Below are positions 28,623 through 57,238 of a DNA stretch of 64,000 bases, piece after piece. How positions within the stretch are numbered: the stretch's first letter is position 1; each line of letters starts with the position of its first letter. This stretch comes from an uncultured Candidatus Saccharibacteria bacterium (lineage in GTDB: Bacteria; Patescibacteriota; Minisyncoccia; Phycocordibacterales; UBA2100): NCBI GenBank assembly GCA_964654205.1, contig CAZZHR010000002.1:65800-129799 (forward strand), written 5' to 3'. The position numbers and the translations under genes are program-made. Under the pieces are notes generated by a model. That model did not search any database. It worked only from the letters and a program-made list of their open reading frames with translations, and was not told where the DNA came from.

Positions 28623-30854
28623 CTAGAGTACTTCGGCCGTACCGGTACGTATCTGCTCAATGACAGGATCCGCCTGCTCTCCAATACCCGGGATAGCGCG
28701 CTTCGCTTCTTCGAGCGCCGCGATCGCCGCCGCGCGATTGCCGGAGAGGTAGTGTATCGCGGCAAGCGTGAAATAGAGCTGCGCATCCTGTGGATTTGCG
28801 CGGATGGCAGCTTCCCAAATCGGCACCGCGCGCACGAGCTGGTTGGTCGAGCGATACGCGGCGAGCACGCGCGAATCGGCCGCCTGGCCTTTCTCGACGT
28901 ATGGTGCGAGCACCTCTTCTCCCTCAGCCATCTGGCCGTTCAAAATGAGCCCAGAGCCGTAAAGCACGGCCGCAGTCGCGAATGACGCGTCGAGTTCGTG
29001 CGCCTGTTTGTAATACGAGAGCGCCGAGGCGGTATCGCCGCGCGCTATCGCGTTCTCCGCAAGCTGGAACATTATTGCCTGCTTTTTCGGAGAGTCTTCG
29101 AGCGCCCGTTCGTACGCTGCCTTCGCATCGTCGTGCAATCCATAGGCTCCATAGAGCACGCCGAGAAAGAGTGGAAAACGCGCATCCAGCGGCGACATGT
29201 CCTCCTGTTTCCGCATTTCCGATTCCGCGAGCGCAAAGAACTGCTGCTTCGTGGCCTCGGGTATGTCGAGCTGGCTCGCCTGTGCTGCCATTTGCGCGAG
29301 CTGCTCCCGGGCTTCCTGCATGCCAAATGTGCCGAGCTCAATCGACTGCCTCATGTACTCCAGATTCGTTGCAATCTGACCCTGCGGTGCGATCGCCTGG
29401 AGCAGAAGCCTGTTCGCAGCGAGCGGCTTTTGGTTGACACCCCATGCGAGGAAAAGCAGCGCGAGTGCACATGCGAGCGCGATGTACGGGATGTACGCAC
29501 GGTTGACTACTGCGCTCCAGAGCACTTTTGCTTCTTGCGCCTTACTGGCTCGATATGCGATAAACGCGAGCACCGTCCCAAAGAGGATGTAGCTTGTCAC
29601 GTTGTCGAAGACGAAGAAGTTGTGCACGAAGTAGCCCGCGAGGAGTCCCGTGAGTATCGAGCGCTCCGCTATCGAGAATCCATCCGGCCGTCCCGTCAAG
29701 ACACTTCGCCAGAGCGCGAATAGCGCAGCGAAGAATATCGAGAGATACGCGAGCAGGCCGAGCGTTCCCCCTGCGACCCACCAGTCGAAAATGATGTTGT
29801 GCACGCGGTCAAACCACGGCTCCTGGCTGTGCATGCGCGGGTCGTAGTACTTGTCGAAAACGAGCGCGTAATTCTCCTGACCCCAGCCCAAAATGGGCTT
29901 CTCCTGTACACCCTGCCATGCCATCTGCCAGTTGATGAATCGCGCCTTCGTCGTCGCGTCGTCGAGTGAGATGGTCGCAAGACGCTGGAGGAAGCCGATG
30001 CGCTGCACCCACGTCTGCTCTTTCACTAAGAAGAACCCGCCGATAATGACGAGGAGCCCTACCACCATCGCCGCCGACGCTCTCCATGCGTTGCGCGAAT
30101 TTTGAGCCTGCATGAGCACGAGCAGCGCGGAAAGGAGCGCGCCGCCGACGAGACCGAGAATCGCACCGCGCGTACCGGTGAGGAGAAGTGCGATGGTGTC
30201 GAGCACAATGATAGAGCCGTACATAAGCGAGATGCCGACGCGCTTTCCCTCGCCCCTTTCCACCCACTGCTGCGCCCAGAGCATCGCCGCGAGGAATATG
30301 TGGAACAGCATGTATGCAGCGAAGTAGATGGGGTTGCCGAATGTCGCGTCGATGCGGCCGCTCAGTCCCGCTGCTCCACCCTGACCGAGTGCAATCTGGC
30401 CGGTAACTTGGAAGAGGCCGTATATCGAGAGGTACGCCGAGACGCCGAGCGTCGTCCACCACAGCCACCGCCAGAGTTTCTCCGTCTGGAGCATCGAGGC
30501 TGCAACCACGGTGTAGACGAGGAGATGGGCAAGCGTCACCCACCCGTCCATGCGCTCGTAGTTGCTCCAGATGCTCTTAAAGGGGTATTCGCCGAAGATG
30601 TCGGCAAGCCCGATGATGGCAACAAATACAGCGAGTGCCGCGAGCACCCATGAGCGCCGGGGTCTATACGCGGGATTGACGAGTGCGAGCGCGAGCCACG
30701 CTGCCGCGCTTATCTCGACAACGATGCGAAAGGCGAAGTTTTTACCCGTGATGTAGGGGAAAAAGAGCGACGAAGTGACGAGGAGGCACACGAAGGGGAG
30801 CGCAAATACGCCAGCAAGGGCAATGAATCGGAGCGTCTTCTCAAGGACAGTCAT
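28623..30854 (-). CDS. O-antigen ligase (Wzy_C)-domain polytopic membrane protein with C-terminal TPR repeats
   Basis: Many TM helices. LLTGTRGAILGLVGG and FDRVHNIIFDWWVAGGTLGLLAY fit the O-antigen ligase core. The C-terminal 280 aa or so are TPR-like (AxxYYKQAxELD...). Trimmed to MTVLEKT, with TAGAAT 7 nt upstream. Confidence 0.78.
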   Translation of the reverse strand: MTVLEKTLRFIALAGVFALPFVCLLVTSSLFFPYITGKNFAFRIVVEISAAAWLALALVNPAYRPRRSWVLAALAVFVAIIGLADIFGEYPFKSIWSNYERMDGWVTLAHLLVYTVVAASMLQTEKLWRWLWWTTLGVSAYLSIYGLFQVTGQIALGQGGAAGLSGRIDATFGNPIYFAAYMLFHIFLAAMLWAQQWVERGEGKRVGISLMYGSIIVLDTIALLLTGTRGAILGLVGGALLSALLVLMQAQNSRNAWRASAAMVVGLLVIIGGFFLVKEQTWVQRIGFLQRLATISLDDATTKARFINWQMAWQGVQEKPILGWGQENYALVFDKYYDPRMHSQEPWFDRVHNIIFDWWVAGGTLGLLAYLSIFFAALFALWRSVLTGRPDGFSIAERSILTGLLAGYFVHNFFVFDNVTSYILFGTVLAFIAYRASKAQEAKVLWSAVVNRAYIPYIALACALALLFLAWGVNQKPLAANRLLLQAIAPQGQIATNLEYMRQSIELGTFGMQEAREQLAQMAAQASQLDIPEATKQQFFALAESEMRKQEDMSPLDARFPLFLGVLYGAYGLHDDAKAAYERALEDSPKKQAIMFQLAENAIARGDTASALSYYKQAHELDASFATAAVLYGSGLILNGQMAEGEEVLAPYVEKGQAADSRVLAAYRSTNQLVRAVPIWEAAIRANPQDAQLYFTLAAIHYLSGNRAAAIAALEEAKRAIPGIGEQADPVIEQIRTGTAEVL

Positions 30855-30861
30855 AGCCGGG

Positions 30862-30867
30862 ATTCTA
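30862..30867 (-). promoter_or_regulatory. -10 box TAGAAT 7 nt before ATG 30854
   Basis: The minus strand reads TAGAATcccggctATG. Confidence 0.4.
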
Positions 30868-31686
30868 TCACGAACGCTTCTTGCGCGTCGGCCGGCCATG
30901 GTCGTCTTCGATGCGGACAATGTCCTCCTCATCGAAATCGCCGTATGCGACCTCCACGACGATGCCGCCTTTCTTCGACTCGAGCCTGTGTACCTGTTTC
31001 TTGCCCACACAGTACGTCTCGCCCCTTTTGAGCCTCACCTGCTCCGCTTTGCCCTTTGCATCGTGGAGGGTCGCTAAGGCATCGCCCTCTACAAGGAGCC
31101 AGCACTCGCTGCGACGATGATGGTATTGCAGACTCAACCGACTCTTGGGCTTTATGTAAATGGTCTTGAGATTCCAGTCCTTGCCACTGTCCCAGCCGTA
31201 GTATTCGCCCCACGGCCGTACTGTTTTCTTCACCGGTTTTGCCGCTTTCGCGATCATCCAGGACGAAGACTGTACTTTCCCTCCGTGACCAACTCGGTAC
31301 TTCCGCGCGATGCCGAGCTCGATGCACACAGAGTCCTCTGGCGTATTCGACTGTACCCTGTCGCCGCCATTGGCGAAGACGTGCGGGCGCAGCTTCCGGA
31401 GCGTGCGCGAGACACTCATATCGGGGTCGTTCTCCGCGTGGTCGGTGAGCACCACCTTGTCGACGAACGGGAGCGACCGTATCATCTCTGCGCGCTCTTT
31501 CTCCGGCATAAAAGCGAAACCTTTCTTAGACTTGAGCCAATTGTCATTGTTGATGATGACAACAAGCTTGTCGCCGAGCTTCTTTGCCTCCTTAAACATA
31601 CGCACATGTCCGATATGGAGTGGGTCGAACCCCCCCGACACAGCGACCCATCGAACCTTTTTGCTACCGTATCGTGCCTTGGCCAT
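30868..31686 (-). CDS. bifunctional cytidylyl/adenylyltransferase-like domain (RfaE-II / TagD type) fused to a cupin (type II phosphomannose-isomerase-like) domain
   Basis: N-terminal VAVSGGFDPLHIGHVRMF (HxGH nucleotidyltransferase). C-terminal RPWGEY...SLQYHHRRSECWLLVEGDA (cupin motif). Confidence 0.82.
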   Translation of the reverse strand: MAKARYGSKKVRWVAVSGGFDPLHIGHVRMFKEAKKLGDKLVVIINNDNWLKSKKGFAFMPEKERAEMIRSLPFVDKVVLTDHAENDPDMSVSRTLRKLRPHVFANGGDRVQSNTPEDSVCIELGIARKYRVGHGGKVQSSSWMIAKAAKPVKKTVRPWGEYYGWDSGKDWNLKTIYIKPKSRLSLQYHHRRSECWLLVEGDALATLHDAKGKAEQVRLKRGETYCVGKKQVHRLESKKGGIVVEVAYGDFDEEDIVRIEDDHGRPTRKKRS

Positions 31687-31718
31687 AGTGGCGTCATCCT
31701 AGCAGAGAGGGCGCACGC

Positions 31719-32459
31719 ATGCGAACTCCTCTATATAATAGGGCTGTGGCGCATATATCACTTATCTTACCCGCGATAGACGAGACGAATTCGCTAGAAG
31801 AGACTGTCCGACTTTCACGTAAGGCACTTTCGTCGCACGACCTCGAGTTTCTCATCGTGACATCTCCCGCCTTTACGACAGGTCCTTGTCTTCGCACAAT
31901 CGAGAATCTGACGACCAACAACCCCGACATTCGACACATCGTGCAAACACTGCCGGGTGTCGGCGGCGCCATACGTAATGCGTTCGATGTTGCGAAGGGC
32001 GAATACACGGTACTCATGGCGAGCGACCTTGAGACTGACCCCGTCGCACTTCCGGCACTCATACAAAAATTGGAGGATGGATTCGACATCGCCGCTACGA
32101 CCCGGTGGCGCGGTGGCGCACATTTCGTAGGCTACCATCCTGTGAAACTTGTATTCAACTACGCATTTCAAAAACTATTTCGCATACTCTACTGGACAGA
32201 CCTCACAGACATGACATACGCATACCGCGCGTACCGCACACCAATAGTAAAACGCATCAGGTGGGAAGAAACGCGGCATCCTTTCCTTTTCGAGAGTATC
32301 GTGAAGCCACTGCGGCTGGGGTACAGAGTGACCGAAGTCGACACCTCATGGAAAGCTCGTTCGGAAGGCGTCTCGCACGGACGACTCACGGACACTCTGA
32401 ACTACGCAAAAGTAGGTCTCAGAGTCCGCTTTATGCCCGCGTCGGAGTTGGTATACTAG
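31719..32459 (+). CDS. GT2 polyprenol-phosphate glycosyltransferase (DPM1/ArnC-like)
   Basis: ISLILPAIDETNSLEETV and MASDLETDP (DxD-like). The alternative in-frame start GTG 31746 has TATAAT 6 nt upstream. Confidence 0.82.
   Translation: MRTPLYNRAVAHISLILPAIDETNSLEETVRLSRKALSSHDLEFLIVTSPAFTTGPCLRTIENLTTNNPDIRHIVQTLPGVGGAIRNAFDVAKGEYTVLMASDLETDPVALPALIQKLEDGFDIAATTRWRGGAHFVGYHPVKLVFNYAFQKLFRILYWTDLTDMTYAYRAYRTPIVKRIRWEETRHPFLFESIVKPLRLGYRVTEVDTSWKARSEGVSHGRLTDTLNYAKVGLRVRFMPASELVY
31734..31739 (+). promoter_or_regulatory. -10 box TATAAT 6 nt before in-frame GTG 31746
   Basis: The sequence reads ctaTATAATagggctGTG. The divergent intergenic gap is only 32 nt. Confidence 0.4.
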
Positions 32460-32559
32460 CCGCAACTCATATGCGTCCAGCTCTCATCACCCCGATACCA
32501 CAATGCTACGCATTGGCTACGGGGCAGGCCGGCGGCATACCTGGTGAGATTTCCTGACT

Positions 32560-33627
32560 ATGAAAAACAAACCGACACTGATTACTGGAGGTTGCGGCTT
32601 CGTTGGACGCCACCTCACGAAAAGCCTCATCGAACGAGGCTATCGAGAAATATGGATTATTGACAACATCGCTCTTGAGAGTGCACACCGTCCACACAGC
32701 TGGCTCTCGGCACGATGGCAAGAGTCCAGTGAGGGCGACGCGCTCATGTATAAGAAAGATGATGTATCGATACGATTCCTCGAGCGCGACGCGCTCGAAG
32801 TGTTCGCTACCCAGCCCGCCGGCGAATTTCCTCAGTTCGGCGATGTCTTCCACCTTGCTTCTATTGTAGGCGGGCGAACGCTTATCGATGGTGACCCCCT
32901 CCTCGTCGCACGTGACCTCGGTATCGATGCCGCGCTATTTCTTTGGCTCTCCCGTGATTCTATGCGCGCCGAACGCGTACTGTACGCTTCATCATCCGCT
33001 GCCTATCCCACGAGACTCCAGGGAGAGAGTGGTGCTGTCGCGCTCAAAGAGTCATTCATAGAATTCTCGGGCGGAACGCTTGGCCAGCCGGACATGACAT
33101 ACGGCTGGGCGAAACTCACCGGCGAGTACCTCGCAAAGCTCGCGCACGAAAAGTACGGCATGCACGTCGCCTGCGTCCGACCATTTTCCGGATATGGGGA
33201 GGATCAAGACCTCACATATCCCACCCCATCTATCGCTCTGCGTGTCGCACGCGGTGACGACCCCATAGAGGTTTGGGGTACCGGTACGCAAGGGCGCGAT
33301 TTCGTGCACATTGACGACTGCGTCGACGCATTCTTCGCTGTACTCGAGAAAGTGTCCGACGGCTCCGCCATCAATATCGGCACTGGGACGCCCACGACAT
33401 TCATTGAATTGATAGAACGCATGCTTACACTCGAAGGTCGTGCAGCAGGAATCAAGCCTCTTTCTGACAAACCGGTCGGAGTGACGACGCGATATGCGGA
33501 CACTACTATGATGGACGAGCGAGTACAGTGGCAGCCGAAAATATCGCTCGACGAGGGACTGCGCCGTGTACTCGACGGTGCGAGACAACGCCTCGCGGGA
33601 AACCCGCTTCCATTCTGCATCGTATGA
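32560..33627 (+). CDS. NAD-dependent nucleotide-sugar epimerase/dehydratase (extended SDR)
   Basis: LITGGCGFVGRHL Rossmann motif and YGWAK (YxxxK). Confidence 0.88.
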   Translation: MKNKPTLITGGCGFVGRHLTKSLIERGYREIWIIDNIALESAHRPHSWLSARWQESSEGDALMYKKDDVSIRFLERDALEVFATQPAGEFPQFGDVFHLASIVGGRTLIDGDPLLVARDLGIDAALFLWLSRDSMRAERVLYASSSAAYPTRLQGESGAVALKESFIEFSGGTLGQPDMTYGWAKLTGEYLAKLAHEKYGMHVACVRPFSGYGEDQDLTYPTPSIALRVARGDDPIEVWGTGTQGRDFVHIDDCVDAFFAVLEKVSDGSAINIGTGTPTTFIELIERMLTLEGRAAGIKPLSDKPVGVTTRYADTTMMDERVQWQPKISLDEGLRRVLDGARQRLAGNPLPFCIV

Positions 33628-34724
33628 AGACGGCAATCGTCACCACAACGATATACGTGCCGAGACTCTTGGCTTCCTATGCCGACGACGCAAAGAAGCA
33701 CGGACACAACCCTATCTTTATCGTAGTCGCGGACAAGAAAACACCGCCGGAGGCCGAGGCGTTCTGCGCAGAACTCGCGAAAACATCGGGGTTTCGCGTC
33801 GAGTACTTTACGGTCGAGCGTCAGGACGAATACCTCTCTCGCTTCCCTGCACTGAAGGCTCACTTACCGTGGAATTGCATCCAGAGGCGCAATGTCGGGC
33901 TCCTCTATGCGTTTGAAGAAGGTTGCGAGACGATTATTACGATTGACGACGACAACTTCCGCGTAACTGAAGACTACATAGGAGCGCATGTTGTCAGCGG
34001 CGAGCGCGAGTGCGACGTAATCTCGACGACAACAGGCTGGCTCAACGTGTGTACTACTCTGAAAGAAAAGCACGGCCGGACTTTCTATCACCGCGGCTTC
34101 CCCCTCGAGAAGCGTCATCTTGAAGAAAACTGGAAGACACAAACACAGACCGTGCGGCCAGTCGTCAACGCCGGTCTCTGGCTCGGCGACCCGGACGTCG
34201 ACGCCATGGAGCGGCTCTACTGGTCCAATGAGCCGACAGAAGCGACCGAATACACAAGCACGCAAAACTACGCTCCGTCAAAGGGCATATGGACGCCTTT
34301 CAATTCACAGAACACCGCCATTGCGCGCCGAGCTATCCCCGCGTATTTTCTCAGTCCCATGGTCGGCCGGTACGATGACATTTGGGCCGCCTACATCATC
34401 AAAAGAATCGCGGACCACCTTGGCGAGTCCATCGTTTTCGGCGAACCTATCGTTCGACAAGAGCGGAACCCGCACAACTATTGGAAAGATCTCGACAATG
34501 AACGCTACGGGCATGCGCTCACTCTTCGTTTTACGCAGGTGCTCGATTCGATTGACCTAGAGGGAAAGGATTACGGCGAGTGCTACGCGGAACTCGTCGA
34601 CTCGCTGCCGACTACATTTACGTCGCTTGGCAAACTCTCCGACGTGGAGGACGCGTTCGTCGCCGGGTATTTTGAGGGTATGAGAGTATGGCGCGAGACA
34701 TTCCCTACCCAGCCCGGACAGTAA
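33624..34724 (+). CDS. reversibly-glycosylated-polypeptide (RGP, GT75) family protein, UDP-arabinopyranose-mutase-like
   Basis: TIDDDNF, HRGFPLEKR, GLWLGDPDVDA and GRYDDIWAAYI parallel the plant RGP motifs TIDDDCF, VRGYPFSLR, GLWLNIPDYDA and GRYDDMWAG. ATGA overlap with the upstream SDR gene. Confidence 0.75.
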   Translation: MKTAIVTTTIYVPRLLASYADDAKKHGHNPIFIVVADKKTPPEAEAFCAELAKTSGFRVEYFTVERQDEYLSRFPALKAHLPWNCIQRRNVGLLYAFEEGCETIITIDDDNFRVTEDYIGAHVVSGERECDVISTTTGWLNVCTTLKEKHGRTFYHRGFPLEKRHLEENWKTQTQTVRPVVNAGLWLGDPDVDAMERLYWSNEPTEATEYTSTQNYAPSKGIWTPFNSQNTAIARRAIPAYFLSPMVGRYDDIWAAYIIKRIADHLGESIVFGEPIVRQERNPHNYWKDLDNERYGHALTLRFTQVLDSIDLEGKDYGECYAELVDSLPTTFTSLGKLSDVEDAFVAGYFEGMRVWRETFPTQPGQ

Positions 34725-35055
34725 CGACGACACCAAGCAGTATCATCGCCAGGCCTATGGCCTGGAAAAGGGTGATGCGCTCGCCGAGGAGAATCGCTGC
34801 ACCTGTAGTGAGCACAAACGTCATACCTATCATAATGGGGTAGCCTACGGCGAGCGGCACAGAGCGCAGCGCGAGGAGGTAGAAACCGAGATTGAGTGCA
34901 AAGAGGACAGCAGCGCTCGCAGCGTACAGATGAGCAGCCGTGAACTCAAACCTAAACAATGCAGAAAAGGAAAACTGATTCGCAGCAGCAAACTTGAGCA
35001 GCACGTTCGCTGCAGCGTTGAGCGTGAAAGCGAGTGCGAGAAACATTAGGTTCAT
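34705..35055 (-). CDS. SMR/EamA-like 4-TM small transporter (ArnE/F-type lipid-linked sugar flippase candidate)
   Basis: 116 aa with four hydrophobic helices and an EmrE-like size. TAGACT lies 6 nt upstream of the ATG. Confidence 0.65.
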   Translation of the reverse strand: MNLMFLALAFTLNAAANVLLKFAAANQFSFSALFRFEFTAAHLYAASAAVLFALNLGFYLLALRSVPLAVGYPIMIGMTFVLTTGAAILLGERITLFQAIGLAMILLGVVVTVRAG

Positions 35056-35069
35056 AGCGTAAGTCTATA

Positions 35070-36605: not shown

Positions 36606-36638
36606 ACGAGTCAATGGATTCTAGCGAGTACAGTATGG

Positions 36639-36644
36639 CATACT
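36639..36644 (+). promoter_or_regulatory. -10 box tggCATACT 6 nt before ATG 36651
   Basis: The sequence reads tatggCATACTacccgcATG. A divergent TAGAAT lies at 36618-36623 on the minus strand. Confidence 0.4.
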
Positions 36645-36650
36645 ACCCGC

Positions 36651-38865: not shown

Positions 38866-38976
38866 ACAAGAAGTGAATGCGTGACACTTTAGCATGAATT
38901 GAACCGAGTGGCTTAGTCTGATAAGGTTGCTCTGGATGGGCTCTTTGACAGAGGGCCGCAACGAAGGGGTGAAACG

Positions 38977-40815: not shown

Positions 40816-40821
40816 CGCCGC

Positions 40822-45930: not shown

Positions 45931-45983
45931 GTTGGCTGTATAGTACGCACAATCGTGGTGTAAATCAAACGTACACGTCTCTC

Positions 45984-46649: not shown

Positions 46650-46659
46650 AGCGCAATTA

Positions 46660-49444: not shown

Positions 49445-51423
49445 GATGTGTAGTGCGAATGTTCTCCGCCCTCCCTCGTCAACATTTCGAGCATGTTGGG
49501 GACGACAGAGGAGAGCGCGTGCTCGCGGCGCACGTAGGCACGCGCAAGAGCGCGCGCATGCTCGCGCTTCTCTTCCGAGAGCGCGAGCGCGGCCTTGATA
49601 GCTACGGCTACGCTCTCAGGCGTGACTTCCTCGAGGAACAGCCTCGGCTCGATGACCCGTTGCACCTCCTTTTCTGAGGTAATCACAAGACAGCCGGCCG
49701 CCATCGCCTCATAGAGCGTCTTTTTTGAGCCGTGCGCGGAACCCGCGTGAATGAAAATCTCATGCGATGCGTAGATGCCCGGCGTCTTCTCATGGAGCAC
49801 CGTCCCGCGATACGCGACTGCTCCGCTGCGTTCTGCGTCGGTGAACTGGGAGCGGAGCTTCGCCGCGTACGCTTCATCTCCCGGTCGCGGCTCCCCGTAG
49901 ACATCGAGCGAGAAGTTGTGGACGTTCTCGCGCACCTGCGCGGCGGCCGCGATGACCGACTCGAGTCGCTTCGATTGATGGATGCGGCCCATAAAAAGCA
50001 GCGACTCTTTCGGCGCAGAGCGTAATGCGGAATACATGTCCGTATCGATGCCCATCGGGACGTACCGCGCGTGTGCAAGCCGGGCGGCATACGAATCCTT
50101 GCTCGAATAGAAGACGATGTCGGCGAGCTGCATCGCCATGCGCGCCATCCATGTCGCGCGCGCGTCGTTGTGCCAGAAACCGACGCGCTTGCCGAGCAGC
50201 TTCCAGAGCCACCCGCCGACGACGGCAAACTCGGACGAGAGATGGACGAGTACCGCGTCGTACTCGCGGCGATGCTTCCACGCCACGGAAAGCAGGCGCG
50301 CCGAGTACACGAGTCGGCGGAAGAACCGCCCCACGGCCGACATCGATTCCTTGCCGAGACTGTGTTCAGTCACGTTGGGTGGGAGCCCCCTGTCGCCGTA
50401 GCCGAGGCAGACGACGTGCAGCCTGTGTGCGTGACGTGCAAACTCCCTAAGCCAGCCGTGGAAGTAGCCGAGGAGCGGGTCGGAGCGGTCTACCGATTCA
50501 GTGCAGACGAGCACTTTCACCTCGCCGCGCAGCGAGCTCAATTTCGGGAGCTCCATCCGTTCGAACGGCTCTTTGAGCACCGACTTTCCATACACGCCCT
50601 CAAGGAGGTCGAGGTCTTTGCCCGTGCCGCGGAGGAGTTCGATATTTTTACGCTCCATGGCTTCCAAGAGCGCCGTACCTGCTTCATTGCCAATCTTTGT
50701 GCTGTATTCGCCTCGGAGAGCCGCGACATCTTTGATAAAACAGTGGCCGCCCGCGCCGCGTCCGCTTTTGTGTATCGGGCGAGCGTAGCGATTGTTGACG
50801 AGAGGGTCCGCTTCGATGGCGCGCTGAATCATGTGCCAATTGCAGCCGTGGTGCGCCGCGAGGTCGTACATGAGGTTGAAAAAGAGTATTTGCGTGTAGC
50901 CGCTCCCGTTGTGCGAGTACTTGATGATCTCGGCTTCCGTGCTCGAGCATGTCTGCGCATATGGCGCAGTCGGAAGGACAGAGTGGATGAGCGCTGCGGC
51001 AGCCTTCTGCTTCGGCGTGTCTTCTGTGAGCCCTACGATGTTCATAAAAGGATGCGCCGCGTCGTGCGCCGCGGTCGCCTCGCTGAGAAATTCCGGCGAG
51101 TAGATGACTGTCTTGTCGGGGAACTCGGTCTGTAATACTTTTGCAGTGCCAGGCACGATGGTCGATTTTATGACTGCAACTTTGTTTTTTCCCACGAGCT
51201 CAATTGCGGATCGGACGATCGAGTAGTCGAATCCCGATGGCGTGGTCGGAGTCGGCACTGCGATAAAGACGAGGTCGCACTCAAGCACCTTGTCCCTATT
51301 TCGCACATAGGGCTCTTCGAGGGCATAGCGGACGCACGCATAGCCGCGGCGCTCGAAATCGTCGGCATAATTCTTGCCGATGAATCCCTGCCCTATGAAC
51401 CCGATGAGCGGCGTGTCTTTCAT
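49441..51423 (-). CDS. fusion protein: UDP-glucose/GDP-mannose dehydrogenase-like N-terminal half plus a GT4-like glycosyltransferase C-terminal half
   Basis: IGFIGQGFIGKNYA Rossmann motif, VFIAVPTPT and GGHCFIKD (catalytic Cys region), then the GT domain described above. Confidence 0.78.
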   Translation of the reverse strand: MKDTPLIGFIGQGFIGKNYADDFERRGYACVRYALEEPYVRNRDKVLECDLVFIAVPTPTTPSGFDYSIVRSAIELVGKNKVAVIKSTIVPGTAKVLQTEFPDKTVIYSPEFLSEATAAHDAAHPFMNIVGLTEDTPKQKAAAALIHSVLPTAPYAQTCSSTEAEIIKYSHNGSGYTQILFFNLMYDLAAHHGCNWHMIQRAIEADPLVNNRYARPIHKSGRGAGGHCFIKDVAALRGEYSTKIGNEAGTALLEAMERKNIELLRGTGKDLDLLEGVYGKSVLKEPFERMELPKLSSLRGEVKVLVCTESVDRSDPLLGYFHGWLREFARHAHRLHVVCLGYGDRGLPPNVTEHSLGKESMSAVGRFFRRLVYSARLLSVAWKHRREYDAVLVHLSSEFAVVGGWLWKLLGKRVGFWHNDARATWMARMAMQLADIVFYSSKDSYAARLAHARYVPMGIDTDMYSALRSAPKESLLFMGRIHQSKRLESVIAAAAQVRENVHNFSLDVYGEPRPGDEAYAAKLRSQFTDAERSGAVAYRGTVLHEKTPGIYASHEIFIHAGSAHGSKKTLYEAMAAGCLVITSEKEVQRVIEPRLFLEEVTPESVAVAIKAALALSEEKREHARALARAYVRREHALSSVVPNMLEMLTREGGEHSHYTS

Positions 51424-51441
51424 GGCGACGTATACTAGCAA

Positions 51442-52515
51442 TTATCGCACCCCCGCGGAAGCTACATCAGCGCAGTACGCGGATACATAGTCTTCGAAGC
51501 TTTTGTAAGGATAATCGGCCAAGAACGCGTCATAAGGACCCTCGGCAAACCAGCGCTTGAGCGCATCTCTGTAATCCTTTTCTTCTGTGACGATTGCTCC
51601 CGCTTCTCTGGCGATACCCACGTCGGTCGATAGGACCGGCTTCCCGGCAGCGAGCGCCTCGATGATGACGAGGCCATACCCTTCGTAGCGCGACGTGACA
51701 AGCACGAGGTCGGCGAGCGCGTAGTATGGCGCACTGTCTGTCTCGCCCTCAAAAAAGACGCGCTCGGCCACTTTGAGTTCATGAGCGAGCTTGTCGAGGT
51801 ACGGCCGTTCGCTGCCACCACCCACGATGACGAGGCACGCATCCGTCGGTGCCGCAGCCGCGAACGCCCGGAGCGCGAGGCATGGATTCTTTTCCGCCTC
51901 AAAGCGACCTACATAGAGCAGGCGTTTCGAAAACCGGGCAAACTTTTGCACAAGCTCCGTATCGGGTCTCGCATTGCGTACACGATCAATATCGACAAAG
52001 ATGGGCAGCACCGTTATCGGACATGTGAGCTCGAATGTATCCTGCAGTGAGCGCTTAATGCGCTCGGAAACGACACGAACACGTGATGAGCGTTGCAATA
52101 CGATTCCCGCCATACGGACGCGCAATCTGTTGATCCAAGAATGATTCGCATACGCCGGAGAAAGAAAGTCTGTGTGGACTTGCACATGCAGCGGCTTGCC
52201 GACAAAACGTGATATCACGAGTGCCGTGAGCCCAGCCTCGAATGGATCCTGTGCGGATACGACATCCGGCCATGGCAACCGCGTCGCGAGGAGTAGCGCA
52301 TCTATGCTATACAGCAACTTCGAGAACGACCTCGTAGGATGCACATGAAGCGCCCCATCGCGGATTTCTGTGAACCCATCGTTTTCGAGCGAGAAACCAA
52401 TGATGTCGAGTGCGCCGAATTTCTCAGCGTACGCTTTCTGCCGCGCGTATGCGGGAGAGCCGGGCACCAGGATGCCCCGCTTTGACCTGTCGGCTCCGAT
52501 CTGCAAGACATGCAT
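51442..52515 (-). CDS. GT4-family glycosyltransferase
   Basis: TSRYEGYGLVIIEALAAGKPVLSTDVGIAREAG. Confidence 0.87.
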   Translation of the reverse strand: MHVLQIGADRSKRGILVPGSPAYARQKAYAEKFGALDIIGFSLENDGFTEIRDGALHVHPTRSFSKLLYSIDALLLATRLPWPDVVSAQDPFEAGLTALVISRFVGKPLHVQVHTDFLSPAYANHSWINRLRVRMAGIVLQRSSRVRVVSERIKRSLQDTFELTCPITVLPIFVDIDRVRNARPDTELVQKFARFSKRLLYVGRFEAEKNPCLALRAFAAAAPTDACLVIVGGGSERPYLDKLAHELKVAERVFFEGETDSAPYYALADLVLVTSRYEGYGLVIIEALAAGKPVLSTDVGIAREAGAIVTEEKDYRDALKRWFAEGPYDAFLADYPYKSFEDYVSAYCADVASAGVR

Positions 52516-52529
52516 ACCTCTACAGAGTA

Positions 52530-53687
52530 TCAGCGTGCCGTGAGAATGTCCTCATACAATGTGATGAATGAATTCACCACGTTCGTAAGCTGGAACTGTT
52601 TAGACCTCTCATATGCAGACTTGGCCATTTTATTCCGCAGATCAAGGTTCACTAGAAGTTCCCGAATTTTCTCAGAGAATGCGTCTTCGTCACTCGGATC
52701 GACGAGGAAACCCGTAATCCCATCTTGCACCAATTCCGAGCAACCCCCCACATCGGTGGACACAATAGGAAGGCCGAAGTGCATGGCTTCGATGAAGACG
52801 TTGGGGAATCCCTCTTCGAGAGACGCAGACACGTAGAGCGCGGCGCCTTGAAACTGCGCATACACGTCTGCTGACGATAGGCGTCCTGTAAACGTGACCG
52901 GCACTCGGAGCCGCTTTGCTTCTGACTCGGATTCCTCGCGGATCCTGTCCTGGCCGTCACCGATGAGCACGAGATGTGCATGGGGGGTTTTCGCCTTGGC
53001 GAACGCACGGATTATCGTCGGTATTCTTTTGTGCGGAATGAACCGATTCGCTGACACGACGACAGGCTTGCTATCGTGAGTGAATGTCTTGTACCCGCCG
53101 CCCTCGATGTCGAGCGCATTTGGAATGATTCGGATACTCGCATCCTCGCCTGCTATCGCGCGAATGTTCTTCGCACGGAACTGTGAGGGTGCCCACACCA
53201 CAGAAAAAAGCAGAAGGCCGTGGCGTTCTATCCAAGTCAGGAACCTCGAAAAAACCGAGAAAGAGTAGGTGCCGCCGAAGTCACGGCTTTTTACGTCACT
53301 CGTTGCGTATGTTTCCCACACCCAGTCGCCTGCGAACTTTATGATACTGGGCATGCCTGCGATTTTCGCAAAAAGGCCTGCCACGAATGACAGTGCGCTC
53401 ACGCTGTGCGCATGTAGGATGTCCGGTCGCTCACGCACGATGACCCATGCCAGACATGCAGAACCGACGAGCCAGCGGATGGGCTTATCGAGCGGCGTGC
53501 GAGTGTAGCGCCAACGGTATCGGTACACCGTGTATCCGTCTGGATTCGACAACTCAAAGCGATCCCCTACAGTGACAACAACGGGTGTTACGCCCCTATC
53601 ATTGAGTACACGGCAAAGGTGCCACGACTGCGTTGCGGGCCCTCCTATCATGGGTGGGAAAATGGGCGCGTACATCAAGACTTTCAT
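52530..53687 (-). CDS. GT4-family glycosyltransferase
   Basis: ASLEEGFPNVFIEAMHFGLPIVSTDVGGCSELV. TAGTAT lies 6 nt upstream of the ATG. Confidence 0.9.
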   Translation of the reverse strand: MKVLMYAPIFPPMIGGPATQSWHLCRVLNDRGVTPVVVTVGDRFELSNPDGYTVYRYRWRYTRTPLDKPIRWLVGSACLAWVIVRERPDILHAHSVSALSFVAGLFAKIAGMPSIIKFAGDWVWETYATSDVKSRDFGGTYSFSVFSRFLTWIERHGLLLFSVVWAPSQFRAKNIRAIAGEDASIRIIPNALDIEGGGYKTFTHDSKPVVVSANRFIPHKRIPTIIRAFAKAKTPHAHLVLIGDGQDRIREESESEAKRLRVPVTFTGRLSSADVYAQFQGAALYVSASLEEGFPNVFIEAMHFGLPIVSTDVGGCSELVQDGITGFLVDPSDEDAFSEKIRELLVNLDLRNKMAKSAYERSKQFQLTNVVNSFITLYEDILTAR

Positions 53688-53693
53688 ATCTCG

Positions 53694-53699
53694 ATACTA
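53694..53699 (-). promoter_or_regulatory. -10 box TAGTAT 6 nt before ATG 53687
   Basis: The minus strand reads TAGTATcgagatATG. Confidence 0.4.
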
Positions 53700-53762
53700 T
53701 ACATGCCTCCTCGCCCGCTCATTGTCCCATTCGTCCGACTGTCACCAGCGACCCGAGCTACG

Positions 53763-54818
53763 CTAGCCACGTTTGGTGGCAAATTTTACCTTTTTGAAGT
53801 ACGCCTGCTGAAGGTCGAGTTGCATCTTCTCAAAGGTGCCCGGCGGCAAAGCTTTAGTCGCAGCAATAATACGACGGATACCCTCCTCCAAGGAGACCTC
53901 TGGCGTGAATCCGAGTACTTTCTTTACTTTCTTCATATCTGCAAGCAGTCGGTACGCATAGATCTGAATAGGGACATTTACACGCACGGGCTTCGGAGTC
54001 TTGACTCCGAGCTGCTTAGCAATGATAGCAAGTACGTCATTGAACGTGTGCTCAATGCCGAAGCCAAGGTTCAGTTCGCAGGTCGGGATATTCTTTTCCA
54101 TCGCCATAATGAAAGCGCGGGCTACGTCGTCGACATAGATGAAATCACGCGTCTGCTTGCCGTCGCCCCATATGACCGGCTTCTGTCCGCCCATGAGCGC
54201 CCACGTAAGGAGCGACGTGATGTTGGCATACCCCAGCTTCGTATGCTCTCCGACTCCGTAGACGGAGAATGGTCGGAAGGCGATGCATTTGAAACCCCAC
54301 CTGTTGCTATAGCGCCTTGCTTCAAGTTCGCACCAATGTTTCGAGCCTGCTTTACTGTCGGGCGGATCGATGGGCATGTCCTCGCGAAATGGCACGCGCG
54401 GCGGCTTGTTCCATTCCTCATAGACGGCGGACGTGGATGCCCATACTATCTTTCTTTTCCCATGCTTGCGCATCGCCTCAAGGATTGTCTTGAACCCGCG
54501 CATCGTAAAGTCGCAGGACTCTACGTCGTTCTCTTCGTACATGATGAACGACGACGGCGCAGCGAGATGGATGATATGGTCTGCTTTTGAGACCAAGTCC
54601 GAAACGAGCTTGTAGTCACGGACGTCGCCCTCTTTCCAGGCTATGTGCGGGGAATTGAGTATTTGGTCGCGATTCGAGAACCGGAAATTATCGAGCGCCG
54701 TGACCCGGTATCCCTTTTCGATAAGTTGCCTCACGAGAGAGCGCCCGATAAAACCTGCTGCGCCTGTCACGAATACGTTTTCACGCAGACCAGACTTTTT
54801 TCGAAACTGTTTTTTCAT
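53763..54818 (-). CDS. NAD-dependent nucleotide-sugar epimerase/dehydratase (SDR)
   Basis: VFVTGAAGFIGRSLV Rossmann motif. Trimmed to MKKQFRKK. Confidence 0.88.
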   Translation of the reverse strand: MKKQFRKKSGLRENVFVTGAAGFIGRSLVRQLIEKGYRVTALDNFRFSNRDQILNSPHIAWKEGDVRDYKLVSDLVSKADHIIHLAAPSSFIMYEENDVESCDFTMRGFKTILEAMRKHGKRKIVWASTSAVYEEWNKPPRVPFREDMPIDPPDSKAGSKHWCELEARRYSNRWGFKCIAFRPFSVYGVGEHTKLGYANITSLLTWALMGGQKPVIWGDGKQTRDFIYVDDVARAFIMAMEKNIPTCELNLGFGIEHTFNDVLAIIAKQLGVKTPKPVRVNVPIQIYAYRLLADMKKVKKVLGFTPEVSLEEGIRRIIAATKALPPGTFEKMQLDLQQAYFKKVKFATKRG

Positions 54819-54850
54819 ATGGCGAGGATAGTACCATGGCGGCACTCAAA

Positions 54851-54878
54851 GTAAAACGGGGCGCGAGGGCGCCCCGTT
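54851..54878 (-). terminator. rho-independent terminator: AACGGGGCGC/GCGCCCCGTT, then TTTTAC
   Basis: A 10-bp GC-rich stem and a 4-nt loop, with a T-tract on the minus strand. Confidence 0.7.
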
Positions 54879-54901
54879 CCAATCTTGGGCAGGCGGGAAC
54901 G

Positions 54902-55123
54902 CTACCGCGTTGGCGGACCCGCGAGAAGATAGGGACTCCTCAGAATGAGCTCGGTGATGATGAGAGACGACTGAATCCAGGCGATGGCAATGGTAGCCGG
55001 CGCAAGCGTCAGCATTGCGTACTCCTTCATTCCGAACTCGTTTCCTTGGAGAGGAGAGACAAATGGGAACATTACAGCTCCCTCCTTTCCTACCCAATCA
55101 AACACCCATATCGGTGTTCTCAC
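54902..55123 (-). CDS. possible small membrane protein
   Basis: GTG start. One hydrophobic helix (AMLTLAPATIAIAWIQSSLIITELIL). It sits between the GT stop and the terminator, but there is no family motif. Confidence 0.3.
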   Translation of the reverse strand: MRTPIWVFDWVGKEGAVMFPFVSPLQGNEFGMKEYAMLTLAPATIAIAWIQSSLIITELILRSPYLLAGPPTR

Positions 55124-55130
55124 CAGCGAG

Positions 55131-56354
55131 TTATCCCCTGTTCGTCAGTGGGTCGAAAACCTCCCTTTTCATGCGCTCTGCTATCAGACCCCAGTCGTAC
55201 CGCTCCGCCGCAAGCTCCCTGGCGTTCTTTACGATGCGTGCGGTGAGCGACGGCTCACCCATGTAGCGCCGCACAGCTTTAGCGACTGATTCCGGATTGC
55301 TGACTTCGCAGAAGATGCCTGTCGGTTCCATGTCGGGATTTCTCTCCGGGTCGAAAAGAAAATCTGGTATGCCGCCGACCGGAGTCGCCACCACGGGAAT
55401 GCCCGCAGCGAACGCTTCAACAAACGCATTGCCAAAACCCTCGATAAGCGATGGTCGCACAAAAATGTCGCACATTTTGTAGTACGCCGGCAATTCGTCG
55501 TGACCGATGTGCCCCGCAAAAATTACGCGCCCCCGCACGCCAGATTCCTGCGCTATGCGCTCGAGCTTGGCTTCGTCTTCTCCAGAGCCGGCAATGAGCA
55601 GCTTTACATTCTCGGGCAGGTGCGCGAGCGAGCGAATCGTGTCCTCGACACCGCGCGAGAGTACGAGGCGCGATGCGGTGAAGAGGAATACGTCACCCAT
55701 TTTTTTGTCGTACTTTTCCTTCAACGTGAGGAGTTCATCTTCCGGTATCACACGAGAAAACTTCGCCACGTCGACTGCGTTGGGAATCACTGCTACGTGC
55801 CCCTTGTACCCTATGTTCCGCACCTCCCGCTCCAGAAAATGCGATATAACCTTGATGCGGTCGGCTCTATGGTAGACACGTTTGTACAGCCACCACAGCA
55901 CATAGAGAATCGGTCGACGCTTCGGCATGTCGCTAAACGCTCGGCCGTCCTGTAGCTCAAGCACATACGGCGTCTTGGGGTGCAGATAATTGAAGATCAT
56001 GCCCGCGAAACCCGCCTGGTTCGCCATCATCGACCAGACCGTGTCGTACACATACTTCTGGTCGAGCATCATCGCTTTCACAAATGCCGTAAAAGGGAAC
56101 AGTAGCTTGGCGAACTTGAGAGTAAGCGGCATCATGCGATCCGACACCTTTGGATTTGCAGCAGACGGGCCGATGCGGTGAATCGTTATGTTGCCCCGCC
56201 TCTCGACTTTCGGCAGGGCTCTGTCGAAGCGGAGCGTCACCATGTGAAATTCATACTCGCTGGAATCAATGCGGTCGGTAATTTCTTTTATCGCCACCTC
56301 CGCGCCGCCAACGAAGGGATGGTAAGTGAGCGAGATAATCAGAACGCGTCTCAT
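55131..56354 (-). CDS. GT4-family glycosyltransferase
   Basis: RPSLIEGFGNAFVEAFAAGIPVVATPVGGIPDFL. Confidence 0.9.
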   Translation of the reverse strand: MRRVLIISLTYHPFVGGAEVAIKEITDRIDSSEYEFHMVTLRFDRALPKVERRGNITIHRIGPSAANPKVSDRMMPLTLKFAKLLFPFTAFVKAMMLDQKYVYDTVWSMMANQAGFAGMIFNYLHPKTPYVLELQDGRAFSDMPKRRPILYVLWWLYKRVYHRADRIKVISHFLEREVRNIGYKGHVAVIPNAVDVAKFSRVIPEDELLTLKEKYDKKMGDVFLFTASRLVLSRGVEDTIRSLAHLPENVKLLIAGSGEDEAKLERIAQESGVRGRVIFAGHIGHDELPAYYKMCDIFVRPSLIEGFGNAFVEAFAAGIPVVATPVGGIPDFLFDPERNPDMEPTGIFCEVSNPESVAKAVRRYMGEPSLTARIVKNARELAAERYDWGLIAERMKREVFDPLTNRG

Positions 56355-57238
56355 GCCTTCTGTGCCTTTAGTGAATCTATATACTGTTTTACCGTCATCT
56401 GCGGCTTCCAGCCGAATTCCTTTTCCACTCGTGTCGTATCGACGATCGAGTCCATGCGGTTCCCCTTCCGCTCCGGCAGCATGACGATGTTGTCAGTAAA
56501 CATCTTCGCGATATCGAGCACCGTGTGCGATTCAGGACTTCCGAGACCGTACTCATCGCCCTGCCCTTTCTCCCCCACATCGACGAGGCCGCGCGCGATG
56601 TCGCCGGCAAAGGTAAAGTTGCGCTTCTGCGTACCAGGTGAGACCACGGTGATGGGCTCGCCTTTCCAGTACTGCGTCTTGAAACGTCCGATGACGCTCG
56701 CATACGGGCCTTCCGCGAGCTCTTGTTTTCCGTACGCATTGTAGAAATACGTGATGGCGTACGGCATGCTGAACCATGTGCCGTAGTTGCGCACGAGTTC
56801 GGTATTGCTCGCCTTCATCCACGCGTAGGGCGATTGGTCGCGCCCCATGCCGCCATCTGAGAACTTGGTCGACGAACCGGCATACACGATTTTGCACTTC
56901 TGGCCAGATAGATTGCGCTTGCGCCAATACTCGAAGACGCGGAACGTGCCGTGGACGTTGCTCTCCCACACGAGCGGCAAGTCGTCGAAGCTTTGTTCGA
57001 CGCGCGAGTACTCGCCGAGATGGAAAATGATAGCGGGGTTTTCTTTGCCGAGAAGCTGTTCGATGTCTTTCGTATGTCCCTCTACGTACTCCGCTCCCGC
57101 GAAATGATTGTCCTTGCTGCCGATGAAGTAATTGTCGAGCGATACCACCCGATACCCCTTTTCGAGGAGCATCTCGATAAGGTGTGAACCAATCAGACCG
57201 GCGCCACCTGTCACAATGACCGTTTTTTTCTCACTCAT
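56351..57238 (-). CDS. NAD-dependent nucleotide-sugar dehydratase/decarboxylase (SDR; UDP-glucuronate decarboxylase / dTDP-glucose dehydratase-like)
   Basis: VIVTGGAGLIGSHLIE and YAWMK (YxxxK). 4-nt overlap with the downstream GT. Confidence 0.88.
   Translation of the reverse strand: MSEKKTVIVTGGAGLIGSHLIEMLLEKGYRVVSLDNYFIGSKDNHFAGAEYVEGHTKDIEQLLGKENPAIIFHLGEYSRVEQSFDDLPLVWESNVHGTFRVFEYWRKRNLSGQKCKIVYAGSSTKFSDGGMGRDQSPYAWMKASNTELVRNYGTWFSMPYAITYFYNAYGKQELAEGPYASVIGRFKTQYWKGEPITVVSPGTQKRNFTFAGDIARGLVDVGEKGQGDEYGLGSPESHTVLDIAKMFTDNIVMLPERKGNRMDSIVDTTRVEKEFGWKPQMTVKQYIDSLKAQKA

Follow-up and report, generated by a model that had tools for sequence, protein, structure and literature searches.

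A putative composite cell-surface glycopolymer locus with a class-wide core in a Kaiserbacteria-like patescibacterium

The window analysed here, a stretch of 64,000 nucleotides of contig CAZZHR010000002.1 (assembly GCA_964654205.1), carries at positions 28623-57238 a dense island of glycan biosynthesis genes, which is probably a composite cell-surface glycopolymer locus of a Kaiserbacteria-like bacterium of the candidate phyla radiation (CPR), made up of a core, a variable centre and a left end. An earlier sequence-only reading of the same DNA had described one glycan biosynthesis island of about 29 kb, occupying roughly 45% of the window, and its extent and nature are borne out: the island spans 28,616 nt (44.7% of the window), of which 27,717 nt are coding with the gene starts chosen here (97%), and nearly all of its domain calls pass Pfam thresholds. 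However, the “one island” really consists of three evolutionary units: a core found class-wide, a centre that varies from strain to strain, and a left end of intermediate conservation. The table of open reading frames (ORFs), their translations and Pfam scans gave 26 firm genes and one small ORF; of the 27 firm genes and one small ORF counted before, the small ORF thus stays and the firm count drops by one.

Above the Pfam gathering score, the island encodes a Wzy_C protein with tetratricopeptide repeats (TPR), one family 2 glycosyltransferase (GT2), an RGP (GT75) protein, a marginally scoring PMT_2 protein, a Polysacc_synt (Wzx) protein, four short-chain dehydrogenase/reductase (SDR) proteins of the Epimerase family, and two CTP_transf_like (HxGH) nucleotidyltransferases, one of them with a MannoseP_isomer cupin. 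Likewise above this score are the N-terminal and central UDPG_MGDP_dh domains fused to a family 4 glycosyltransferase (GT4), six free-standing GT4 proteins, two methyltransferases, a protein with B12-binding and Radical_SAM domains, a DegT aminotransferase and a Formyl_trans_N protein. The possibility that the glycosyltransferase calls would fail profile thresholds, raised in the sequence-only reading, did not materialize, as they pass those of Pfam. Its count of seven GT4 proteins plus a fusion has to be corrected, because the seventh GT4 domain is that of the dehydrogenase fusion itself. Most of the remaining domain list is retained, except that the small multidrug resistance (SMR)-type and DUF4254-like proteins score below cut-off and that the protein called “Nudix-like” has no Pfam or NCBIfam match. 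The named homologs of the fusion protein belong to metagenome-assembled genomes of Candidatus Kaiserbacteria, Paceibacterota or the “Patescibacteria group”, and the rest of the window is CPR-like as well, with a split transketolase, a pilin, a ComEA-PKD protein, a TrwB-like ATPase and DUF4015. Judged from these sequences, the host is a Kaiserbacteria-like patescibacterium; both the relatives of the fusion protein and the window context fit a patescibacterial origin.

Six gene pairs in the island overlap by 4 nt, and two convergent pairs overlap at their 3′ ends, at 34705-34724 (20 nt) and 37867-37913 (47 nt), with coordinates exactly as given in the sequence-only reading. Its statement that there is no room for terminators applies to these two convergent overlaps and fails elsewhere, since strong terminator-like hairpins are located at 40764-40784 (after the radical SAM gene), 42221-42247 (after an orphan gene) and 57300-57273 (upstream of the first core gene). 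Given the internal terminator-like hairpins, the island as predicted from its sequence comprises several transcription units. Scans of the whole window with Rfam (gathering threshold) and for tRNAs gave no match.

The core (48416-57238) is common to the whole bacterial class. Loci fetched from relatives are designated by L-numbers; L003-L006 were fetched around homologs of the fusion protein, and 80 loci stem from a scan of GTDB genomes. Counts out of 80 refer to the loci that gave matches and are lower bounds, since many contigs are short. The closest relative is GCA_964594735 (L004/L017), and L013 is Kaiserbacteria GW2011_GWA2_52_12. L003-L006 and most of the 80 loci have in common the order SDR, GT4, a variable slot, GT4, dehydrogenase(-GT4) and GT4, with the core SDR preceded by a TrwB-like ATPase and then a ComEA-PKD or LTD protein. 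In the window, where (+) and (-) denote the strands, these genes code for the SDR at 56351-57238 (-; Epimerase 123 bits), with homologs in 52 of the 80 loci, and for GT4 proteins at 55131-56354 (-; Glycos_transf_1 125 bits; 57 of 80), 51442-52515 (-; Glyco_trans_1_4 92 bits; 69 of 80) and, as the last core gene, 48416-49444 (-; Glycos_transf_1 54.7 bits; 67 of 80), the fusion being encoded between the latter two. Genes left of 48416 have homologs in 0 to 20 of the 80 loci, mostly distant paralogs. The variable slot holds an extended SDR (53763-54818, -; Epimerase 157 bits), which is absent from L004 and finds only matches of about 25% identity elsewhere, and a GT4 (52530-53687, -; Glycos_transf_1 132 bits) that matches at 22-28% in most loci, at 56% in L045 and at 49% in L074.

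Comparison with the closest relative marks the border of the core. DNA identity of the window to L004/L017 is 96.7% at 61189-63500, 83% at 57934-61093, 81% at 54885-57232 and 74% at 49097-52503, and left of 49097 no DNA similarity to this relative was found. Protein identity follows stepwise into the island, with 98, 93, 81, 93, 88, 82, 70 and 43%, then nothing. The right edge of the island is the hairpin at 57300-57273, just upstream of the first core gene. It lies after a 165-aa ORF (57371-57868, -) situated between the core and the ComEA-PKD gene, for which neither a Pfam match nor a homolog in any fetched locus was found. Beyond this ORF, the region 57928-61079 (-) codes for the ComEA-like helix-hairpin-helix and PKD protein and a TrwB/TraG-like ATPase, and its synteny with the glycan core extends across many Paceibacteria lineages. 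The core also contains the small ORF, previously given as a weak ORF at 54902-55123. Its extent is more likely 54902-55072 (-), coding for a hydrophobic protein of 56 aa; a Shine-Dalgarno-like AAGGAGG is located upstream, and a GC hairpin with a T run follows on the 3′ side. The same start and stop are kept open in L004, with 51% amino acid identity of the products, and from these features the ORF is probably a real gene. In L006 and L090, small ORFs likewise follow the equivalent GT4 gene.

The most distinctive core gene, 49441-51423 (-), encodes a truncated nucleotide-sugar dehydrogenase with UDPG_MGDP_dh_N and UDPG_MGDP_dh domains, fused to a GT4. A total of 235 homologs of the fusion protein were found, and a profile scan of the species-representative genomes of GTDB showed that at least 548 stretches encode a relative, in Kaiser-, Adler-, Vogel-, Nomura-, Zambryski-, Taylor- and Falkowbacteria and other Paceibacterota. 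Relatives of the dehydrogenase part are fused to GT4, SDR or Epimerase_2, or are free-standing (about 296-370 aa). In the window protein, no Pfam match to the C-terminal nucleotide-sugar-binding domain of such dehydrogenases was obtained; the GT4 follows the central domain instead, and the score against the NCBIfam model NDP-sugDHase is 116, with a cut-off of 190. The GxGxxG motif (G8-G13), K168, N172, C228 and D232 of the dehydrogenase part are invariant in 20 homologs, and we take this motif and the Lys, Asn, Cys and Asp to be the cofactor-binding and catalytic residues of UDP-glucose dehydrogenases. A bolder proposal, which we regard as speculative and quite unlikely, starts from the loss of the nucleotide-sugar-binding domain and the fusion to a GT4. 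The core dehydrogenase could then oxidize the sugar on a lipid-linked intermediate, during or after its transfer, rather than as a free UDP-sugar, yielding a uronic-acid-containing envelope polymer common to CPR cells of the Paceibacteria type. Each strain would decorate this polymer, in this bacterium with a furanose delivered by a hitherto undescribed route by way of the GT75 protein, the GT2, a lipid and the GT-C enzyme described below.

Next to the core, the gene sets of relatives differ: L003 has FdtA, DegT and an ABC transporter, L005 UbiA and a carbamoyltransferase, L004 a deacetylase, an ATP-grasp protein, AsnB and Wzx, and L006 GFO, hexapeptide and DegT proteins together with a TagF-like enzyme. 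By analogy with known loci, a conserved backbone module with differing neighbours marks a surface-antigen locus that varies between strains. In the window, the genes abutting the core encode a S-adenosylmethionine (SAM) methyltransferase (47790-48419, -; Methyltransf_11 46 bits) and a GT4 (46660-47793, -; Glycos_transf_1 154 bits), followed by a gene trio (43815-46649) whose domains suggest that it provides a 4-amino or formamido sugar. The latter consists of a sugar N-formyltransferase-like protein (45984-46649, -; Formyl_trans_N 33.7 bits) with an HPSDLP motif, the ArnA N-domain as best NCBIfam match and 1zgh, ArnA and VioF as PDB matches; an extended SDR (44944-45930, -; Epimerase 98 bits), whose best NCBIfam match is GalE (69 bits) and which has a 50% ortholog in L029; and a DegT-family aminotransferase (43815-44942, -; DegT_DnrJ_EryC1 380 bits) that falls short of both PseC (338 bits, cut-off 423.5) and ArnB (270 bits, cut-off 631). 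A small protein, weakly similar to DUF4254 (25 bits, cut-off 27) and DUF6165 (19.7 bits), is encoded at 43416-43811 (+) and has no NCBIfam match. The adjacent GT4 gene is annotated as 42244-43419 (+; Glycos_transf_1 98 bits); its TTG start is overlapped by the hairpin 42221-42247, the corresponding gene call in the Logan assemblies is 369 aa, and the true start is probably downstream.

A second putative sugar module of the centre is formed by a B12-binding-domain radical SAM enzyme (38977-40740, +; B12-binding 45 bits, Radical_SAM 49 bits), a free-standing HxGH nucleotidyltransferase (40822-41259, +; CTP_transf_like 57 bits) and an orphan protein of 291 aa (41330-42205, +). The radical SAM enzyme is most similar to HpnJ and AprD4 in NCBIfam (below cut-off) and to AprD4 in the PDB (6fd2, E 3.4e-16); as this best solved relative is a radical diol dehydratase, the enzyme may deoxygenate a sugar in the manner of the sugar dehydratase AprD4 rather than methylate it. 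Its orthologs in L087 and L089 (52-69% identity) belong to the same cassette; a scan of the genome collection with this protein yielded 18 pattern matches, none of which was confirmed. The nucleotidyltransferase, a paralog of the N-terminal domain encoded at 30868-31686, reaches 62 bits with RfaE domain II and 59 bits with TagD, both under cut-off. The orphan, the protein formerly called Nudix-like, has five homologs and lies between the genes of the B12 radical SAM enzyme and the HxGH transferase in all three neighbourhoods fetched. Its AlphaFold2 (AF2) model has a mean predicted local distance difference test score (pLDDT) of 55.5 and no significant fold match, Nudix proteins appearing only among matches with E above 1; a REAFEE stretch resembles the Nudix box, its EE pair not being conserved in four of the five homologs. 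The cassette recurs at 38977-42205 in the window, 8131-11398 in L087 and 134-3496 in L089. Its neighbours elsewhere are a GT9 heptosyltransferase gene (L087/L088), a SIS-domain gene (L087), and a PfkB kinase and an inositol-phosphatase-like gene (L089), and these heptose-type neighbours hint, by analogy, at a heptose-type nucleotide sugar. A second SAM methyltransferase is encoded at 37867-38865 (-), with Methyltransf_23 (88 bits) at residues 251-390 of the 496-codon ORF 37867-39357; the Logan gene call is 300 aa, and the true start is internal to this ORF. The ORF far exceeds the likely methyltransferase (300-332 aa), its upstream part overlapping the divergent radical SAM gene and probably being untranslated.

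The left end (28623-37913) is a semi-conserved export and decoration module. The orthologs in L091 occur in window order, with identities of 51% for Wzx, 49% for the GT-C enzyme, 41% for the SMR-like protein, 65% for the nucleotidyltransferase-cupin fusion and 59% for the Wzy_C-TPR protein. The Wzx-type flippase of the MOP group (36651-37913, +) reaches 62.2 bits with Polysacc_synt (cut-off 28.2) and has about 12 hydrophobic segments. The fusion of HxGH nucleotidyltransferase and cupin (30868-31686, -; CTP_transf_like 61 bits, MannoseP_isomer 74 bits) has RfaE domain II as best NCBIfam match, far below cut-off, 3glv as best PDB match, and orthologs with 64-68% identity in L058, L072, L074 and L091. 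The outermost gene, 28623-30854 (-), encodes the Wzy_C-family membrane protein (Wzy_C 78.7 bits; about 12 hydrophobic segments) with C-terminal TPR families, whose matches span about residues 560-785 of the 795-codon ORF (roughly 200 residues); IctB and RfaL are matched only weakly. Its orthologs (36-59% identity) are located at the far island end in L024, L045, L066 and L091, adjoining wzx or the nucleotidyltransferase-cupin gene, and the islands of L024, L045 and L066 end with wzx and the Wzy_C-TPR gene. Pfam Wzy_C also takes in Wzy polymerases and O-oligosaccharyltransferases of the PglL type and PilO. The domains of the protein are compatible with polymerase, ligase and O-oligosaccharyltransferase activity alike, and since its gene is paired with wzx in relatives it may itself be the polymerase. 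The earlier label “ligase”, together with the conclusion that a Wzy is missing, is therefore unsafe, as Wzy_C does not separate ligases from polymerases. At the left border of the island, 27787-28437 (-) codes for a protein with a PaaX/Cas2-like domain that may be a regulator; homologs with 35-42% identity are encoded inside the glycan islands of L009, L012, L030 and L037.

The left end also encodes a putative three-component system for a lipid-linked sugar. The protein encoded at 35070-36605 (-) exceeds the PMT_2 cut-off marginally (26.4 versus 26.1 bits), and sequence and profile searches against solved structures, CAZy-typed enzymes included, found no match. Its AF2 model, based on 33 homologs, has a pLDDT of 92.6, and the top 40 Foldseek matches in the PDB are all GT-C enzymes, among them STT3, ArnT (5f15, E 3.5e-7), AftB, DPY19, ALG9/12, PglB and Pmt4; D36-D37 in the first loop is invariant across the 33 homologs. 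According to the model, the protein has the GT-C fold, and its donor would be a lipid-linked sugar on the outer side of the membrane. A small membrane protein of 116 aa with about four transmembrane helices (34705-35055, -) is SMR/ArnE-F-like; its 41% ortholog in L091 directly follows the GT-C ortholog, and from its similarity we propose it as flippase for the lipid-linked sugar. The GT2 (31719-32459, +; 246 aa; Glycos_transf_2 51 bits) is devoid of a transmembrane helix and has its best NCBIfam matches, all below cut-off, in Dol-P hexose transferase, PgfS, AglJ and ArnC, and PDB matches in DPMS (5mlz), ArnC (9bhc) and GtrB (5ekp); it is proposed, on these similarities, to be a polyprenyl-phosphate sugar synthase making the lipid donor. 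The ORF at 31694-32089 (-), which has no family match, was taken for a spurious frame antisense to the GT2 gene. An extended SDR of the epimerase type (32560-33627, +; Epimerase 119 bits) has UDP-Glc and UDP-GlcA 4-epimerases and GDP-mannose 3,5-epimerase (2c59, E 1.6e-19) as best PDB matches, and its gene overlaps by 4 nt with that of the GT75 protein.

The latter (33624-34724, +; RGP 37.5 versus 23.8 bits) is a homolog of nucleoside diphosphate (NDP)-pyranose mutases and aligns with MtdL (PDB 7yua/7xpr) over 328 residues with an E value of 2.2e-47. MtdL is a Mn-dependent GDP-L-galactose/fucose pyranose-furanose mutase in which R159 is the nucleophile, D260 the base and H287 a Mn ligand; mutation of Asp87 abolishes its activity, and the Mn ligand His287 is lost in the inactive AtRGP5 (PMC9937993). 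The window protein keeps T13, I15, D40, R90, DDD109-111, N112, R159, D195, S228, Q229, R257, D260, R289 and H292 of MtdL, and differs from it in N42 (Lys), S86 (Cys), D87 (Ile) and H287 (Gln). A full-library search retrieved 2,728 cluster representatives (E up to 0.001). In an alignment of 131 full-length sequences, comprising the window protein and 130 relatives, R159, D195, D260 and D40 are invariant and the DDD motif and R257 nearly so; at the positions of D87 and H287, the pairing Ile/Gln is the commonest (44 of 131), and the MtdL-type Asp/His is present in 27. By its sequence the protein is a member of a large uncharacterised GT75 branch; mutase chemistry is likely, and we propose that it makes an NDP-furanose.

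In L013, the core is immediately followed by a group of genes for orthologs of the GT-C enzyme (46%), the GT75 protein (60%), the SDR (63%) and the GT2 (60%). A UbiA-family gene and an SDR gene occupy, in L091 and L005/L011, the position between the SMR/GT-C orthologs and the nucleotidyltransferase-cupin gene, the best solved relative of the UbiA protein being a decaprenyl-phosphate phosphoribosyltransferase (8j8j, E 5e-45). The latter enzyme starts the lipid-linked pentofuranose donor for the mycobacterial GT-C arabinosyltransferases and is an analogue of the synthase of a Citrobacter system (PMC11127046). The occurrence of two unrelated gene sets in the same slot beside the same GT-C gene argues that both GT2, SDR and GT75 and UbiA and SDR supply a polyprenyl-phosphate-linked, probably furanose, donor. 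The apparently swapped donor modules are located at 8574-12699 in L091, 13008-16929 in L005 and 12551-17839 in L013.

Taken as one glycopolymer locus, the island would function as follows. Cytoplasmic GT4 enzymes would assemble an oligosaccharide on a polyprenyl-phosphate carrier, primed by an initiator encoded elsewhere, with the aminotransferase, SDR and formyltransferase of the variable region supplying a formamido sugar, the two methyltransferases acting as tailoring enzymes, and the radical SAM, HxGH nucleotidyltransferase and orphan cassette giving a modified, possibly heptose-like, nucleotide sugar. Wzx would flip the lipid-linked unit, which the Wzy_C-TPR protein would polymerise or move to an acceptor. 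In a separate branch, the SDR and the GT75 mutase would produce an NDP-furanose, the GT2 would load this sugar onto polyprenyl phosphate, the SMR-like protein would flip the lipid-linked furanose, and the GT-C enzyme would attach the furanose to the glycan outside the membrane.

Several observations weigh against this reading. None of the 20 island proteins scanned reaches an NCBIfam equivalog cut-off, and it is thus not possible to put a name to any of the sugars. No initiating phosphoglycosyltransferase (Bac_transf or Glycos_transf_4; WbaP/PglC or WecA/MraY type) is encoded in any large ORF of the window, as the sequence-only reading had noted, together with the lack of Wzz, and the same set of ORFs contains neither a Wzz/PCP (polysaccharide co-polymerase) chain-length regulator nor a LytR-CpsA-Psr (LCP) ligase; carrier lipid and acceptor are consequently assumed. 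That core and variable part make the same molecule is an assumption as well. E. coli O-antigen loci depend on a distant wecA, and absence of the initiator from such clusters is ordinary. In the furanose branch, the SMR-like protein matches Multi_Drug_Res (22.2 versus 23.7 bits), ArnF/ArnE (24-26 bits) and TMEM234 below threshold throughout, and L013 yielded no SMR ortholog. Besides lacking a membrane helix, the GT2 resembles polyprenyl-phosphate transferases weakly (E 1e-8 to 1e-4) and could be an ordinary Leloir furanosyltransferase, and the equivalents of D87 and H287, both needed in MtdL, are replaced by Ile and Gln in the GT75 protein.

Other explanations of the island were weighed against the composite glycopolymer locus. 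Joining of fragments from several organisms during assembly, which the sequence-only reading had considered and with which the spread of gene GC contents across the island (0.45 to 0.61) would agree, is extremely improbable: GC along the island stays at 0.50-0.60 without a step, Logan assemblies of two sequencing runs are 100% identical to the window at 33815-48922 and 42994-51831, so that 33815-51831, core/variable border included, is reproduced independently, and the gene order of the left end is syntenic with L091. The Logan contig that matches 33815-48922 (18.4 kb) continues with the GT2 gene, the nucleotidyltransferase-cupin gene and the beginning of the Wzy_C gene, arranged as in the window down to about 30566; in this part it was compared for gene order rather than sequence. 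The Wzy_C-TPR protein itself is not on record in an exact look-up, which leaves the leftmost ~2 kb (28623 to ~30566) without independent assembly support. Nor is an Arn-like pathway convincing, in which dehydrogenase, SDR, DegT aminotransferase, formyltransferase, GT2, SMR-like protein and GT-C enzyme would make and export a 4-amino/4-formamido pentose, as ArnABCEFT do for lipid A. Look-alikes are present for every Arn step except ArnD, with ArnB, the ArnA N-domain, ArnC, ArnE/F and the ArnT fold among the best or near-best matches, but the scores are far below the equivalog cut-offs (ArnB 270 versus 631, ArnA 48 versus 777, ArnC 31 versus 529 bits), the island lacks a deformylase/deacetylase (ArnD) domain, and the SDR beside the DegT protein shows a GalE-like SxxxYG motif rather than the decarboxylase motif. 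Moreover, the dehydrogenase is devoid of the UDP-binding domain and is part of the conserved core, the aminotransferase and formyltransferase genes are ~9 kb away from the GT2/SMR/GT-C set, this set travels with the GT75 mutase (L013) or the phosphoribosyltransferase-like gene (L091), and the organism has no lipid A. The Arn reading, very improbable on these grounds, was rejected for its sub-cut-off scores, the missing ArnD, the distance of the genes and the missing lipid A.

Two further readings accept most of the biochemistry and differ in the product. In protein O-glycosylation, the Wzy_C-TPR protein would be an O-oligosaccharyltransferase of the PglL/PilO type that transfers the Wzx-flipped oligosaccharide en bloc onto pilins or giant surface proteins, the speculative candidate acceptors of the sequence-only reading. 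PglL and PilO belong to the Wzy_C family, the window has a pilin gene (4671-5126) and two giant-protein genes but yielded no Wzz, and the lipid A-core on which a WaaL-type ligase acts is generally missing from a monoderm CPR cell. However, no sequence feature tested separates an oligosaccharyltransferase from a polymerase or ligase, the pilin gene is ~23 kb away, relatives carry the Wzy_C-TPR gene with wzx at the ends of polysaccharide-type islands, and hypervariability at strain level is just as typical of polysaccharide loci, so that we consider this reading unlikely. Somewhat less unlikely is that the island makes two or more products, the core being responsible for a conserved envelope molecule, e.g. 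a GT4-built glycolipid or lipoglycan for which no phosphoglycosyltransferase is needed, and the variable and left parts for a separate Wzx-dependent glycan. The conservation of the core far beyond that of other island genes, its own upstream terminator (57300-57273), the dissimilar export genes that adjoin it in relatives (e.g. the ABC transporter of L003) and the absence of an initiating transferase from the window are all consistent with separate products. On the other hand, variable genes abut the core directly in every relative examined, as in backbone-plus-decoration loci, and 4-nt overlaps chain the GT4 gene 46660-47793, the methyltransferase gene, the GT4 gene 48416-49444 and the fusion gene across the core/variable border, suggesting co-translation. 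Taken together, we favour the single composite locus as the probable reading.

Outside the island, the window contains the pilin gene at 4671-5126 and encodes a 23S rRNA intervening-sequence protein at 9152-9598 (-; 109 bits with PF05635), with no rRNA in the window. The region 10115-21430 (-) codes for two giant proteins of 1375 aa (DUF7483 and SPRY) and 2172 aa (weak C1q and HTH matches), and an IS200/Y1-type transposase gene (14239-14901) is situated between their genes.

CPR bacteria (Patescibacteria) are presumed to live in attachment to other microbes; to our knowledge, no chemistry of their envelope glycans is on record. A core common to hundreds of species, combined with a strain-variable block, would be expected of a surface antigen exposed to pressure from phages or from host recognition. 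The locus type is ordinary; its value lies in providing an entry to CPR surface chemistry and possibly a typing locus, and in offering concrete testable enzymes, namely the dehydrogenase-GT4 fusion, the putative GT75 mutase that would supply a lipid-linked donor, and the cassette of radical SAM enzyme, orphan and nucleotidyltransferase. The sugars, the carrier, the acceptor and the choice between polymer and protein target are all putative. What the present analysis adds is the partition into core, variable part and left end, the confirmation of the GT-C enzyme, the GT75 protein as MtdL-type homolog, and the swap of donor modules.

The literature found contains only general statements on the many glycosyltransferases of Patescibacteria (PMC12911398), and none of it pairs Kaiserbacteria with glycosyltransferase. 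Among described systems, the loci for the enterococcal polysaccharide antigen (EPA) and the lactococcal cell wall polysaccharide (CWPS) are bipartite, with conserved and variable parts (PMC7188991, PMC12599335). Like these and like O-antigen and capsule loci, the island combines a conserved glycosyltransferase block with a variable block of sugar-modifying enzymes, Wzx and a Wzy_C-family protein, shows steep divergence at the border among close relatives, and would have its initiator encoded elsewhere. In contrast to EPA and CWPS, the window contains no rhamnose (rml) genes, LCP ligase or TagO, and the conserved block is built around a dehydrogenase-GT4 fusion which the searches made found only in Patescibacteria. 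With PglL/PilO, WaaL and Wzy, the protein at the left end has in common the Wzy_C domain, multiple transmembrane segments and a gene encoded with wzx; it differs from them by the C-terminal TPR domain of roughly 200 residues. Of the features of MtdL and Hyg20 from bacterial antibiotic pathways and of the plant UDP-arabinopyranose mutases (PMC9937993), the GT75 protein retains the DDD motif, the Arg nucleophile, the Asp that acts as base and the Arg/His residues that bind phosphate, whereas it departs from MtdL/Hyg20 in the replacements Asp87 to Ile and His287 to Gln and in being encoded in a surface-glycan locus instead of an antibiotic cluster.

Systems in which a GT-C enzyme is encoded with a small flippase and the synthase of its lipid donor are known, namely GtrABC, ArnC/EF/T, CsbB-GtcA-YfhO, the mycobacterial DPPR synthase-Rv3789-Aft/Emb system and the Citrobacter PPPRS-MATE-GT136 system (PMC11127046, PMC8035078). 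As in mycobacteria, relatives of the window locus have a decaprenyl-phosphate phosphoribosyltransferase homolog for donor synthesis, encoded with an SMR-like protein. The window GT-C enzyme differs from these systems in matching CAZy-typed solved enzymes by fold and not by sequence, and the window donor module differs in consisting of a GT2 lacking transmembrane helices, an epimerase-like SDR and a GT75 mutase, a combination of which we found no description in the literature. The island thus belongs to a familiar type of locus, some of its parts being new, in a lineage in which loci of this type have not been dissected.

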